From Candidatus Pacearchaeota archaeon (lineage in GTDB: Archaea > Nanobdellota > Nanobdellia > Pacearchaeales > GW2011-AR1): a stretch of 42,300 bases of DNA. This document shows positions 4,021 to 16,706 of the stretch, piece after piece. Under the pieces are notes generated by a model, which was not told the origin of the DNA, made no database searches, and was given only the letters and a program-made list of their open reading frames with translations. The translations under genes were made by a program, and so were the position numbers. The stretch covers positions 1-42,300 of the forward strand of contig JAGVXK010000008.1 in assembly GCA_018303825.1 (NCBI GenBank). The letters are read 5' to 3'. Position 1 is the first letter of the stretch. Each line of letters opens with the position of its first letter.

Positions 4021-4117
4021 AAATATCAGTCAGTTTTTAATTATATAAAAGTTTCTATAAGATAGAAAGCTATTTCATAATTTGTTGGATAAATTATTTA
4101 TTTTTTATTTCAATAAA

Positions 4118-4125
4118 TTTAAATA
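4118..4125 (+). promoter_or_regulatory. Archaeal TATA box for the leader-cimA-ileS transcript
   Basis: AAATTTAAATACC. The same TTTAAATA core precedes other genes here (8781, 17307, 19046, 37160). It lies 21 nt before the leader ATG. Confidence 0.65.
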
Positions 4126-4146
4126 CCCTATATTTCTCAGTCTGTG

Positions 4147-4215
4147 ATGGCTATAAGCAAGTTAAATGAAGCGAATGCAATTGAAACAAGCTTTATCATA
4201 GCTATTATTATCTAA
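4147..4215 (+). CDS. Ile-rich leader peptide MAISKLNEANAIETSFIIAIII (22 aa)
   Basis: 7 Ile codons, 5 of them in the last 6 sense codons, directly upstream of citramalate synthase and ileS. Confidence 0.7.
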   Translation: MAISKLNEANAIETSFIIAIII

Positions 4216-4219
4216 GTCT

Positions 4220-4239
4220 GCGACTCCAAACTGAGTTGC
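4220..4239 (+). promoter_or_regulatory. Hairpin between the leader stop and the cimA start
   Basis: GCGACTC-CAAACT-GAGTTGC, 7 bp with one G-U pair; no U-tract follows. Confidence 0.5.
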
Positions 4240-4248
4240 GCAATTAAT

Positions 4249-5868
4249 ATGACACATACAGAGATTTTTGATACAACATTAAGGGATGGTCCGCAAGGAC
4301 TTCATATTAGCTTGAGCAAAGAGGATCATATAAAACTTTTCAAGGAATTGGACAATTTTGGAGTAGATTATATTGAGCTTGGCTGGCCGGCAAATGCAAG
4401 CAATGTAGATCACAGCATGATTGATGTCTTCAAGGAATGCGTTCCTCTTGCCAAAAAATCCAGGGTTGTGGCTTTTGGCTCTACTTCAAAAGCGTCAAAT
4501 CTTGCAAATGACAGGAAAATTCAATCTCTTGTTGAAACTGGAGCTGGAACTGCATGTATTTTTGGAAAATCCTGGCTTGAACATGTGGAAAGAGATTTGC
4601 AGATAACTCCTAATGAAAACCTTGAAGTAATATCCAGAAGCATTGATTTTCTTAGAAGGAATAGCATGGAAGTCTTTTATGATGCTGAACATTTTTTTGA
4701 CGGCTACAAAGAACATCCTGAATATGCTCTGCAGACTCTTTTAAGAGCCGAGCAGGCAGGCGCAACAAGATTGATATTATGTGATACAAATGGGGGCTCT
4801 ACTCCAGAACAGGTAAGAGAAATTACTTCTCAAGTATTTAAAATGGTTAACACTTCATTAGGAATACATACTCACAATGATAGAGGCCAGGCAGTGGCAA
4901 ACGCAATGGCATGTTTGAAATATGTAAAACAAGTTCAGGGAACGATGCATGGAAGGGGAGAGCGGGCTGGGAATATGAGCCTTGCGGCATTTATAGGCAA
5001 TATTGTTGAAGAAAGCTATAAACTTGGAAGAGAAAATCCTAATCTTATTGGAAAAATTGACTCTAAAAAATTAAAACATATATACGAAGTATCATGTTTT
5101 CTAAGCGGGATAGAGCCTGATGAAACTGAGCCTTATGTTGGTGATGCTGCCTTTGTCCATAAAGGGGGAGTTCATCAAAATGCTGTTGGAAAAGGTGGCG
5201 GACATTTATATGAACATGTTCCTCCTGAATTATTTGGAAACAGGAGAATATTTCCGCTTAATACTCTTGGAGGGAAAAGTTCTGTAGCATTAGTTGCCTC
5301 GCAGTTCGGATATACTTTTGACAAAAGAGATCCCAACCTTGAGGGCAAAGTAGATGCGCTTTTTGCAGAATTAAAGAAATATGAAAATGAAGGCTATAGA
5401 CTCGGAACTTTATTTGCAGAGCAATTTTTACTGATTGAAAAGTATTTTGGAGGCATGAAACCTTTTTTTGTCCTAGATATGAACAATTACCATATAGAAA
5501 TAGGAAGAAAAAATGGAGTTGAAAGAAGCTCTTTTTGGTGTCCAGTAAGAATAGATGGGGAGTTGTTTGTGGCTTCCAAAGAAGTTGAGGGCGGACCAAT
5601 AGATGCTGCAGACAAGGCGATAAATGAGACTGTCTCAAAGAAATATCCTGGAGCCGGAGAATTAAGATTAATAGATTATCATGTTAGTCTTGCTAGGAGA
5701 AATGCAGAAGAGAGCACTGTCAGGAATCTTATATATTTTGAAAATGGGGAGGAATTTAAGACTGTTGGAGTTAGTGAGAACATTATTGAAGCAGGGGTGG
5801 AGGCTCTGGTTAAAGGACTGCAATACCATCTGTGGAGGACTTATAAAGGCAGGAATGCGAAACTTTAA
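4249..5868 (+). CDS. cimA: Citramalate synthase, bacterial type (LeuA/CimA DRE-TIM family)
   Basis: DTTLRDG, GIHTHND, GERAGN and YVGDAAFVHKGGVH motifs plus a C-terminal regulatory domain. The Ile-rich leader favours CimA over LeuA. Confidence 0.8.
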   Translation: MTHTEIFDTTLRDGPQGLHISLSKEDHIKLFKELDNFGVDYIELGWPANASNVDHSMIDVFKECVPLAKKSRVVAFGSTSKASNLANDRKIQSLVETGAGTACIFGKSWLEHVERDLQITPNENLEVISRSIDFLRRNSMEVFYDAEHFFDGYKEHPEYALQTLLRAEQAGATRLILCDTNGGSTPEQVREITSQVFKMVNTSLGIHTHNDRGQAVANAMACLKYVKQVQGTMHGRGERAGNMSLAAFIGNIVEESYKLGRENPNLIGKIDSKKLKHIYEVSCFLSGIEPDETEPYVGDAAFVHKGGVHQNAVGKGGGHLYEHVPPELFGNRRIFPLNTLGGKSSVALVASQFGYTFDKRDPNLEGKVDALFAELKKYENEGYRLGTLFAEQFLLIEKYFGGMKPFFVLDMNNYHIEIGRKNGVERSSFWCPVRIDGELFVASKEVEGGPIDAADKAINETVSKKYPGAGELRLIDYHVSLARRNAEESTVRNLIYFENGEEFKTVGVSENIIEAGVEALVKGLQYHLWRTYKGRNAKL

Positions 5869-5892
5869 AAGTTCCAGGATAGAAATAAAGAC

Positions 5893-8754
5893 ATGATTGA
5901 CTTTAAAAAAGTTGAAGAGGAGATGTGGGAGTTCTGGGAAAAGAACAAGATATATGAAAAATTGGAAGAGAAAAATAAGAAAGGGGAGAAGTTCTGGCTT
6001 CTTGATGGACCGCCATATGCAAATGGAGTTCCCCACATAGGGCACATAAAAAATACTGTTTTCAAAGATATTGTTATAAGAATGAATTTTATGAAGGGCA
6101 AGAGTGTCATGGTAAAGCCCGGGTTTGATACACATGGGCTGCCTGTTGAGAATATGGTTGAAAAAAAACTTGGACTGCAGAGCAAGAAAGACATAGAGAC
6201 ATATGGAATTCCAAATTTTATGAAACAATGCAAGGATAATGCTGCATTAAATAAAAATATATGGATGAGGGTTTATAAAAAACTGGGAAGTTTATACTGC
6301 TTGAAAGAGCCTTATCTGACGTATGATGATTCGTATATAAGTTCTGGGTGGTGGACATTTAATGAAGCATACAAAAAAGGGTTTGCATATTGGGGGGAGA
6401 AGCCAGTCATGTGGTGCCCTCATTGCCAGACAAGCCTGTCAGGATATGAAATTACAGATTCATATAAGGACGTTCAGGACCCCGGAATATACATTTTGTT
6501 TAGAATAAGAAACAGCGATGAATCCCTCTTAGTTTATACAACAACCCCCTGGACTCTTCCGGGAAATGTGGCCATTGCGATAGCTCCAGATGAAAATTAT
6601 GTTGTTGCGGATGTTGCCGGAAGGAAGATAATAATTGCAGAAAAAAGACTTGAAAAATTAAGTGAATTGGGATTTGGATATAATATTCTTAGAATATTCA
6701 GAGGGGAGAAGCTTGTTGGGATGAAATATGAACCTTTGTTGGATGTTCCATTGCAAAAATCACTTGATTCAGGAAAATTGGGAAGAGCGCATGAAATCAT
6801 CGCCTCTATTCCACTATTGAAAGAAAGGGTTGCCTCAAAAATGAGAACAAAAAAACATATCGAGGGAGGAGATTTATTTGAAGAATTTGTAACAATGGAT
6901 GATGGAACCGGGCTTGTTCATACTGCCCCCGGGCATGGAAAAACAGACTTTATTGTTGGACAGCGCTATGGTCTTGCCTGCGTTTCTCCAGTTGATGATG
7001 AATGCAATTTAACAAAAGATTCTGGATTTTCTGGGTTTGTAAAAAAAGCAGACAAAGATATTTTGAAAAGACTTGAGGAAACTGGAAAATTGCTTTATCA
7101 GGAAACCATAACCCATAGTTATCCTTTATGCTGGAGATGCAAATCCCCCCTAATATTTAGATTGAGCAATCAATTATTTTTAAAAATTGATAAAGTTAAG
7201 AAAATAATGAAGAAAGAGAATAAAAAAGTTAATTGGATGCCTGAATTTGCAAGAGAAAGGTTTGATAATTGGGTTGAAAATGCGGAAGATTGGAATGTAT
7301 CCAGGCAAAGATATTGGGGAATACCTATTCCGATATGGAGATGCTCTAATTGCGGGAATGAAAAAGTTGTTTCCAGCAAGGTAGAATTAGAAAAATTGAC
7401 TAAAAGAAAAATAAGTGATTTGCATAATGCAGGAGAATTAACAATACAATGCGGGAAATGCAAGAAAGCAATGCATAAAATCAAGGGAGTCCTAGATGTT
7501 TGGTTTGATTCTGGAATAGCTCCCTGGGCAAGCATAGGTTATCCGGATGAAAACAAAGAATTATTCGAAAAGACTTTTCCAGTCGATAGGATAAATGAAG
7601 CGCAGGACCAGATAAGAGGTTGGTTCTATTCTTTGATGTTTTGCTCCAGCGCTATTTTCGAAAAGGCACCCTACAAGGGAGTTTCTATGATTGGATGGGT
7701 TGTCGATAAAAAAGGAGAAAAGATGTCTAAATCTATTGGCAACATCATAGAAGGAGAAGAGGCTGTCGACACTCTTGGCGGAGATATGCTCAGATATTAC
7801 TTCTGCTGGGATGTTGCCCCATATGAAATACAAAAATTCAATCTAGATATCGCTAAAAAAGAGATAGGAAAGATTCTCAATGTGCTTTGGAATCTGCAGA
7901 ATCTTGCAAATAAAAATGAGTCTGAAGAGGAAATAGAGGAAAAATGGCTGACTTCCAAATTAAATAATGCTATTAGGATTTACCAGGAAAATATTGAAAA
8001 ATTTGAATCGAATACGGCATTGAGAGCCATATCGGACTTTATATTAAATGATTTATCTAGAAGTTATGTTCAGATGACCAGAGGGAAAGAAAATGGGAAA
8101 ATAATTCTTGATTCGCTGATTGTTTTGCTGAAATTGCTTGCCCCAATTTCCCCATACATAACGGAAAAAATATGGCAAAATCTTAAATTGATGGATCTTG
8201 TGCAGGAAGAGAGCATACATCTTACTAATTGGCCCGTTTTTAATGAAAAGAAGATAGACAAAAAGTTGGAAGAATCTTTTGCTGATGTTATGAAATATGT
8301 CGAACTTGGCTTGTTTGAAAGGGATAAGGCTAAGATTGGACTAAAGTGGCCACTCGCTAAAGCAATGATAACAAGCGATAAAAAAATCGACGAAGAAATG
8401 AAGAAAATAATCGCAAAACAATTGAATGTTAAAGAGATAGAGACAAGAGAAGGAAATGATATTAAGATAGAAATTGATACAAAGGCAACGCCTGAACTGG
8501 AAGCCGAGGGATATGCAAGGGAGTTTACGAGAAAAGTGCAGGCTGAAAGAAAGAATAAGGGGCTAAAAAAAGGAGAGTTAATAGTACTGAAAGTAAGTAC
8601 TGACAAAAAATTGAAGCAAACTCTGGTGGAAAATATTGAATTCTTAAAAGAGAGAACAAATTCAAAAAAGATTGAATTTTTCGACGATAAATTGGGTGAA
8701 AATGCGGTAGATTTTGCAATCAGGGACAGAAAAATCTCTATTGAGTTGGAGTAA
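5893..8754 (+). CDS. ileS: Isoleucine--tRNA ligase
   Basis: DGPPYANG-PHIGH, WTTTPWT-like editing motif (YTTTPWTLPGN), GTGLVHTAPGHG, DW-ISRQRYWG-like, KMSKS. Confidence 0.97.
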   Translation: MIDFKKVEEEMWEFWEKNKIYEKLEEKNKKGEKFWLLDGPPYANGVPHIGHIKNTVFKDIVIRMNFMKGKSVMVKPGFDTHGLPVENMVEKKLGLQSKKDIETYGIPNFMKQCKDNAALNKNIWMRVYKKLGSLYCLKEPYLTYDDSYISSGWWTFNEAYKKGFAYWGEKPVMWCPHCQTSLSGYEITDSYKDVQDPGIYILFRIRNSDESLLVYTTTPWTLPGNVAIAIAPDENYVVADVAGRKIIIAEKRLEKLSELGFGYNILRIFRGEKLVGMKYEPLLDVPLQKSLDSGKLGRAHEIIASIPLLKERVASKMRTKKHIEGGDLFEEFVTMDDGTGLVHTAPGHGKTDFIVGQRYGLACVSPVDDECNLTKDSGFSGFVKKADKDILKRLEETGKLLYQETITHSYPLCWRCKSPLIFRLSNQLFLKIDKVKKIMKKENKKVNWMPEFARERFDNWVENAEDWNVSRQRYWGIPIPIWRCSNCGNEKVVSSKVELEKLTKRKISDLHNAGELTIQCGKCKKAMHKIKGVLDVWFDSGIAPWASIGYPDENKELFEKTFPVDRINEAQDQIRGWFYSLMFCSSAIFEKAPYKGVSMIGWVVDKKGEKMSKSIGNIIEGEEAVDTLGGDMLRYYFCWDVAPYEIQKFNLDIAKKEIGKILNVLWNLQNLANKNESEEEIEEKWLTSKLNNAIRIYQENIEKFESNTALRAISDFILNDLSRSYVQMTRGKENGKIILDSLIVLLKLLAPISPYITEKIWQNLKLMDLVQEESIHLTNWPVFNEKKIDKKLEESFADVMKYVELGLFERDKAKIGLKWPLAKAMITSDKKIDEEMKKIIAKQLNVKEIETREGNDIKIEIDTKATPELEAEGYAREFTRKVQAERKNKGLKKGELIVLKVSTDKKLKQTLVENIEFLKERTNSKKIEFFDDKLGENAVDFAIRDRKISIELE

Positions 8755-16564: not shown

Positions 16565-16706
16565 TGCGGGGAGGAGGATTTGAACCTCCGAAGGCACTAA
16601 GCCACAGGATGTCTCAATCTGATAAGAGATTATCCTGAACAAAAATCTTCCTAACGGAAGACCGACTTCTTAAGTCCTGCGCATTTGACCGCTTTGCTAT
16701 CCCCGC
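16565..16706 (-). tRNA. tRNA-Leu(UAA) with a 58-nt intron (16611-16668) at position 37/38
   Basis: Acceptor GCGGGGA/TCCCCGC-A, anticodon arm CAGGA-CTTAAG^A-TCCTG, long variable arm, canonical bulge-helix-bulge (CUUA/UGAG central helix). Confidence 0.95.

Follow-up and report, generated by a model that had tools for sequence, protein, structure and literature searches.

A leaderless open reading frame with a terminal isoleucine run ahead of cimA in Candidatus Pacearchaeota: a predicted ribosome-read isoleucine sensor

Sensing of amino-acid supply through the translation of a short leader peptide is a textbook mechanism of bacteria, usually tied to terminators and to masking of the Shine-Dalgarno (SD) sequence. 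The enterobacterial branched-chain attenuators include ilvL of ilvGMEDA, ivbL of ilvBN, and leuL. The T-box RNA of the Firmicutes ileS and ilv genes binds uncharged tRNA directly and has no open reading frame (ORF). A full-text literature search, which was not exhaustive, found no leader-peptide attenuator in archaea. Here we analyse a stretch of 42,300 nucleotides (nt), called the window in what follows, from a Candidatus Pacearchaeota archaeon (kingdom Nanobdellati, DPANN group; GenBank assembly GCA_018303825.1, contig JAGVXK010000008.1, positions 1 to 42,300). Positions 4112-4251 of the window, at the 5' end of the mRNA of a gene similar to cimA (citramalate synthase), are likely to be a leader-peptide sensor of isoleucine (Ile). 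Among the described systems it comes closest to the leaderless poly-cysteine short ORFs of mycobacteria (Ms5788A type; Canestrari et al. 2020), which act as translational attenuators (bioRxiv 10.1101/834739). For ermCL/catA86, as summarised in that same source, arrest of the ribosome needs both a drug and the nascent peptide, and alternative hairpins free the SD. In E. coli, a stem-loop located 11-12 nt downstream of the first P-site base lies at the entrance of the mRNA channel, where it impedes the binding of tRNA in the A site as well as translocation; the bacterial mRNA channel reaches 11 nt beyond the first P-site base (PMC7282821). The leader and its gene comprise the following elements:

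4112-4125, + strand: archaeal promoter, with a purine-rich hexamer resembling a B recognition element (4112-4117) followed by the TATA box TTTAAATA (4118-4125)
4147-4215, + strand: leader ORF of 22 codons plus stop, predicted to be leaderless; ATG, Ile run and stop are in frame in 28 loci
4147-4158, + strand: 5' strand of helix P1, the predicted mRNA 5' end including the leader start codon
4190-4205, + strand: 3' strand of P1, reaching into the opening codons of the Ile cluster and ending 4 nt before the last Ile codon
4195-4212, + strand: terminal Ile cluster (five of six codons), where charged tRNA-Ile would be sensed
4219-4240, + strand: hairpin P2 after the stop codon, 4220-4226 paired with 4233-4239 (7 bp including one G-U), with a 6-nt loop (4227-4232) and a possible terminal U4219-G4240 wobble
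4249-5868, + strand: cimA-like gene of 539 amino acids with HMGL-like, HCS_D2 and LeuA_dimer domains

The mycobacterial poly-Cys ORFs resemble this locus in being a leaderless first cistron that lacks a terminator and contains successive codons for an amino acid to which the genes behind it relate; for both, a pausing ribosome has been proposed as the signal, and each has several loci answering to a single amino acid. They differ in what the ribosome covers. There the stalled ribosome lies over a duplex that hides the SD of the next gene, whereas here the helix under the ribosome (P1) would hide the start codon of the leader itself, P2 would stand just outside the ribosome, cimA has no SD and the host is an archaeon. 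With ilvL, ivbL and leuL the element shares a short ORF rich in end-product amino acids ahead of the first pathway genes, as well as separate Ile-type and leucine (Leu) or Leu/valine (Val)-type leaders within one organism or lineage. Unlike them, it has in the window neither mutually exclusive 1:2/2:3/3:4 hairpins nor a hairpin-plus-U-tract terminator, its ORF is leaderless and its run lies at the very C-terminus beside the stop. An arrested leader ribosome would alter access to the next start without transcription termination, as in the summary of ermCL/catA86 quoted above; unlike what is summarised there, the arrest proposed here comes from tRNA supply, and alternative hairpins were not found. 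Like the T-box of Firmicutes the element would gauge charged tRNA-Ile for Ile-related genes, but it has an ORF and the Rfam T-box models were unmatched. When a ribosome has the last Ile codon in its A site, P2 falls at the 11-12 nt entry-channel spacing of the dnaX and HIV gag-pol stem-loops (Bao et al. 2020, eLife, PMC7282821). Those published data come from bacterial ribosomes, and there is no slippery sequence here, so that frameshifting is not expected at the cimA leader. New here are P1, the fixed spacing between the last Ile codon and the hairpin, two architectural classes, the pairing of an Ile leader with a Leu leader within a single reduced genome, the probable promoter that ileS has to itself and the orphan status of both synthases.

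The window is contig C4 of an 806-kb assembly (23 contigs; 34.5% G+C; 86% complete). A first-pass annotation of it had placed the TATA box at 4118-4125, the ORF at 4147-4215, the hairpin at 4220-4239 and the heptamer TGCAATT at 4176-4182, and all four were found at these positions. Between the TATA box TTTAAATA and the leader ATG there are 21 nt, and transcription is predicted to start at A4147 or within 1-2 bases of it, a start read from the promoter and not mapped. Boxes at this leaderless-type position precede 27% of the long ORFs of the genome vs 5% of control positions. Seven of the 22 leader codons are Ile (two ATA, three ATT and two ATC), five of them among the last six, and the ORF ends with three Ile codons in succession (two to five in relatives). 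Ile accounts for 8.9% of the codons of the genome. Small ATG ORFs with at least five Ile in the last six codons number only three in the whole assembly, and at the other two (contigs C3 and C5) promoter, hairpin and downstream gene were all not found. Among the 310 small ORFs that have a TATA box at leaderless distance, only the cimA leader ends in five Ile of seven; just two of the 310 have at least five identical residues among their last seven, each of them preceding a cimA-like or leuA-like synthase gene. Chance or AT-richness as the source of the Ile-run leader is ruled out by these genome-wide counts together with the two featureless look-alike ORFs.

Homologues of cimA were collected from genomes of the same family and of the wider class, from a species-level genome collection and from metagenomes. 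This gave 30 archaeal loci with enough upstream sequence to be assessed (protein identity 32-51%), while a further sample of 400 class genomes yielded zero additional cimA loci. A small ORF ending in an Ile run was found just 5' of cimA in 28 of the 30. These leaders are 15-53 codons long (median 22) and otherwise diverged in sequence; all of them have three to six Ile among the last seven codons (totals there ATT 84, ATA 31, ATC 14) and a stop 0-2 codons beyond the last Ile. A TTTAWATA-like box (at most two mismatches) stands 19-25 nt (median 22) before the leader ATG in 28/28, and because of this spacing the leader ORF should be the 5' end of a leaderless mRNA. The first-pass annotation had proposed to seek support in the upstream regions of DPANN cimA genes; there the Ile-run leaderless ORFs vary in length and sequence and keep their frame, and the hairpin covaries. 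The two exceptions are L022, where cimA lies directly behind another gene, and L112. In the latter, a metagenome locus (~1100-1192), the upstream diphthine-synthase-like methylase gene is extended by a short Ile-rich tail with a stop-adjacent hairpin, cimA following 43 nt on, and the end of the leader may here be fused to the preceding methylase gene. One of the 28 leader loci (L017) and the leuA locus L224 come from an unpublished genome (G304), and the conclusions are independent of both.

Ile-run leader ORFs were found at none of the 79 other cimA loci of the genome collection (nearly all bacterial) and at none of ~60 high-GC metagenome loci. In a quick maximum-likelihood tree of cimA, the bacterial sequences and two low-GC metagenome loci form one clade with 100% support and the remainder is archaeal. 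Inheritance of the leader together with a bacterial cimA is ruled out, since the bacterial clade has no leaders (~140 bacterial-type loci). The archaeal loci themselves show two layouts. In the clade of the window (13 loci) the spacer from ORF to cimA is 27-41 nt, cimA has no SD and ileS is next, while in other archaeal lineages the spacer is 47-240 nt (except L016 and L023), most loci have an SD and cimA is solitary. About half of the cimA loci of these other archaea carry a CCATTGTTTCT-like motif 3' of P2. In L017, L113 and L124, all with a long spacer, this motif is predicted to pair with the cimA codons of the conserved LRDG motif, which suggests a long-range helix enclosing SD and start codon and not a terminator.

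P2 has a predicted energy of -9.8 kcal/mol (z = -3.8 vs dinucleotide shuffles) and its 3' end at 4239 stands 9 nt before the cimA ATG at 4249. The hairpin is present in 27 of the 28 leader loci, 0-6 nt beyond the stop, with stem sequences that are unrelated; three pairs show compensatory double changes in each of two subgroup alignments. Counted from the first base of the last Ile codon, its first paired base comes at 9 nt in 17/27 loci and at 8-9 nt in 20/27; in the window a distance of 9 needs the terminal U4219-G4240 wobble and is otherwise 10. The distance of 9 nt is reached by three layouts, namely the run, the stop and three spacer bases; the run, one codon and the stop with no spacer; or the run and two codons with the stop inside the stem. 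Since three layouts give the same distance, P2 appears to be placed relative to the Ile codons and not to the stop. The first-pass annotation was correct in noting no U-tract in the window, where P2 is trailed by CAATTAAT and then by the cimA ATG, and there is none in the rest of the clade either.

In the RNAfold prediction, P1 pairs 4147-4154 with 4198-4205 and 4155-4158 with 4190-4193. RNAalifold recovered it in six divergent loci, with compensatory double changes at five of ten pairs, and the mean duplex energy is -7.6 kcal/mol for cognate strands vs -5.2 for non-cognate ones (0/20,000 permutations as extreme, p ~5e-5). A single-stranded linker of ~13 nt separates P1 from P2 and contains the last Ile codons, and the 3' strand of P1 would be within the footprint of a ribosome waiting at these codons. 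The pairing of TGCAATT with the 3' arm of the hairpin (AGTTGCG), which the first-pass annotation had offered as an alternative fold, is not conserved, and the duplex energies of cognate and non-cognate strands are equal. Subgroup alignments contain no conserved sequence motif beyond the helices. Rfam gave zero matches for such an element at gathering thresholds in the window, and noise only at E up to 10 in 4050-4350.

The genome has a second leader of the same kind:

Contig C20, 62564-62629, - strand: leader ORF of 21 codons with six terminal Leu codons, leaderless, with a perfect TATA box ~22 nt upstream and, at the 5' end, a helix of the P1 type

It is separated by 73 nt, T-rich and with an SD, from a leuA-like gene (61330-62490; locus L013:1396-2553:-) of 386 amino acids. 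The product matches best the 2-isopropylmalate synthase models (521 bits vs a cut-off of 532) and consists of the catalytic domain only, without the regulatory domain. Most of the closer leuA homologues in the class (at least 42% identity) are preceded by leaderless ORFs with terminal Leu or Leu/Val runs, and such leaders also head full leuA-ilvB-ilvN-leuC-leuD-leuB-ilvC operons. Among the distant paralogues (33-38% identity, n=9), seven have no leader. At one of these seven loci without a run-type leader (L241, genome G153), the distant HMGL-like paralogue is preceded by a 53-amino-acid zinc-ribbon ORF similar to LysW, the carrier of the lysine pathway, which suggests that this paralogue is a homocitrate synthase. 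The strongest case for a sensor read by the ribosome comes from the matching of amino acids, with Ile runs ahead of cimA and Leu or Leu/Val runs ahead of leuA.

Together with the conservation in 28 of 30 archaeal loci, the covariation of P1 and P2, the constant distance of P2 from the last Ile codon and the absence of leaders from the bacterial cimA loci, this favours the first-pass proposal of a leaderless upstream ORF that senses Ile-tRNA for cimA, as a predicted sensor. Judged from comparative sequence analysis, the element is real and conserved, and it is very probably a ribosome-read Ile sensor for cimA.

On the observed anatomy, conservation, covariation and amino-acid matching we can set a model in which translation of the leader, the output step and the direction of control are what we infer. 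Transcription starting at the ATG of the 22-codon ORF would produce a message translated as leaderless. Because the last codons are almost all Ile, the dwell time of the ribosome on them would reflect how much charged tRNA-Ile is available. In P1 the 5' end is paired with the beginning of the Ile run; this helix could therefore form only when no ribosome is on the run, and once formed it would hide the start codon of the leader itself. A ribosome held at the run until Ile-tRNA arrives would cover the 3' strand of P1 and leave the start codon at the 5' end free. Once the last Ile codon occupies the A site, P2 would begin 12 nt downstream of the first P-site base, and at this distance the waiting ribosome would abut P2 without melting it, while P2 may lengthen the pause at the run. 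Only a ribosome past the last Ile codon would enter P2, 9 nt before the SD-less start of cimA. Slow decoding of Ile would thus keep the P1 gate open and ribosomes would continue entering the leader; those completing it would open P2 and allow initiation or re-initiation at cimA. The net result would be more cimA expression under scarcity of Ile-tRNA, reached with no alternative hairpin. Within the overall reading as a sensor, this P1 gate with induction on Ile limitation is put forward tentatively, and we agree with the first-pass annotation that the direction of control cannot be read from the sequence.

Several points weigh against the sensor or against particular versions of it. A model in which the stalled ribosome unmasks the cimA start fails because the geometry leaves P2 closed under such a ribosome. 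Constrained folding gave the cimA start the same modelled accessibility whether the ribosome was placed on the last Ile codon or on the stop (0.53 vs 0.52), and simple unmasking by ribosome position was dropped for this reason. Under plain coupling, cimA expression would go up with abundant Ile, opposite to what is expected of a biosynthetic gene. The search for an antiterminator-type partner of the P2 arms in the ORF body, downstream and at the 5' end gave no conserved signal in six strand combinations. Roughly one locus in three has a weak P1 or none. The 9-nt rule fails in the Leu leaders (distances of 3-10 nt, one at 23) and, as the loci are related, rests on few independent events. Finally, the genome carrying the supposedly regulated cimA was found to have none of the later pathway enzymes that were searched for.

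Among the rival explanations, an unlikely one is a transcription attenuator, in which P2 and the U-rich stretch seen in many relatives would stop the archaeal RNA polymerase, or let FttA/aCPSF1 act, and the leading ribosome would decide on read-through. Archaeal polymerase terminates at oligo-T tracts; runs of T5-T7 occur in several hairpin loops, the Leu leader of this genome is followed by its T-rich spacer, and the CCATTGTTTCT-like motif is conserved behind P2 in the long-spacer, SD-bearing cimA loci. However, the pairing of this motif with the LRDG codons in L017, L113 and L124 speaks for the SD-enclosing helix, no U-tract follows P2 in the window's clade, where the cimA ATG comes 6-14 nt after P2 in most loci (20 nt in L028), and no conserved antiterminator pairing was found. 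Moreover, with one hairpin a stalled ribosome would let P2 form and transcription would terminate under starvation, which is the wrong direction. In the long-spacer class transcription attenuation is possible.

The Ile residues could also come from hydrophobicity and AT-rich DNA, the ORF encoding a hydrophobic micropeptide (e.g. a membrane peptide) or merely delivering ribosomes to the SD-less start of cimA. Several leader peptides do have a hydrophobic end of 12-20 residues, which would reach across a membrane, and the base composition and Ile content of the genome given above (34.5% G+C; 8.9% of codons) go in the same direction. This is nevertheless improbable. The shortest leaders (15-19 codons) are too short to span a membrane, the peptides are unconserved outside the run while the RNA helices covary, and the run matches the downstream enzyme, Ile with cimA and Leu or Leu/Val with leuA, being absent before seven of the nine distant paralogues; the only two of the 310 leaderless-like ORFs that end in at least five identical residues of seven are both before these synthase genes. 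We give even less credence to an RNA that binds tRNA-Ile or Ile directly in the manner of a T-box or a riboswitch, with Ile codons presented to the anticodon between the helices and the ORF incidental. T-box elements control ileS in Firmicutes, and the position of the last Ile codons in the single-stranded linker between P1 and P2 would suit such binding. Yet there is no Rfam match even at E = 10 and no conserved sequence motif beyond the helices; in all 28 loci the run shares its frame with an ATG that coincides with the predicted transcription start, and a stop comes within two codons; the Leu/Val leaders mix several codons in a way that a single specifier could not read.

If the leader acts as a sensor, how far its control would extend along the locus depends on ileS, the gene next to cimA:

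5864-5871, + strand: TATA-like box TTTAAAAG, overlapping the cimA stop codon and 21 nt before the ileS ATG
5893-8754, + strand: ileS, 953 amino acids (TIGR00392, 780 bits), adjoining cimA in 13/13 loci of this cimA clade

No SD motif or promoter of its own was found for cimA in the 33-nt spacer that separates it from the leader. For ileS, a box with at most two mismatches and a gap of 19-21 nt is present in six loci of the clade of the window (class A: L001, L002, L003, L004, L112 and L126), the locus of the window included. The ileS genes of relatives lacking cimA have the same kind of box upstream and no Ile leader (29 ileS loci in the family), with L197 as the sole doubtful exception. In this locus, from a genome without cimA (G644), an Ile-rich ORF of 14 codons and a small hairpin lie ~55 nt 5' of ileS, ahead of the ileS promoter; the ORF could be a relic of a leader or a chance ORF. 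That the Ile leader belongs to ileS was ruled out, given that the cimA-less ileS loci use their own promoter without a leader. Because of its own TATA-like box here and the same type of promoter in the cimA-less relatives, ileS is probably transcribed separately as a leaderless message, and control of it by the leader would be at best partial. The first-pass suggestion that the leader also governs ileS is doubtful in view of these boxes 19-21 nt before its ATG.

The cimA-like protein scores 424 bits against TIGR00977 (citramalate synthase), just below the cut-off of 450, and its catalytic-site columns are invariant among 17 archaeal homologues. The LeuC, LeuB, IlvC, IlvD, IlvE and AHAS families were not found in this genome. 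Searches of the 17 cimA-bearing genomes turned up neither LeuC nor KARI families in 12, the present genome among them, and seven of these 12 are 91-98% complete. The first-pass annotation had taken cimA as the beginning of the pyruvate route to Ile; since the later enzyme families were not found, cimA cannot start a complete Ile pathway in this genome. By gene content, the cimA-like and leuA-like genes are here orphans, with the active-site residues of the cimA-like protein conserved.

That the organism is an archaeon is also evident from the genes nearby and at related loci, whose products include TrmB, TBP, archease, RtcB, deoxyhypusine synthase and a diphthine-synthase-like methylase. Elsewhere in the window, at 16565-16706 (minus strand), Rfam reports a tRNA of 142 nt (48.8 bits) that ARAGORN does not report and that is probably an intron-containing archaeal tRNA gene.

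The DPANN leader would be a stripped-down, leaderless form of leader-peptide control with structural rules of its own: gating by P1, a constant distance to P2 and a run at the C-terminus. It could help to explain how internal archaeal genes without an SD are translated, and it supplies a sequence signature for locating regulated amino-acid genes in metagenomes. The leader is also an independent functional label, tying the cimA-like gene to Ile and its paralogue to Leu. It poses a metabolic puzzle as well, as both first-step enzymes are retained, and apparently regulated, in genomes in which the remaining pathways were not found. A wider possibility, which we hold to be less likely than not, is a DPANN switch made of a cognate-codon run framed by P1 at the 5' start codon and P2 at the entry channel, with the ribosome as the sole alternative partner and neither terminator nor antiterminator, whose matched Ile and Leu versions would control CimA and LeuA even in host-dependent genomes without the later steps. 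If this is true, the orphan CimA and LeuA would make amino-acid-regulated intermediates that are passed to, or drawn from, a partner organism.

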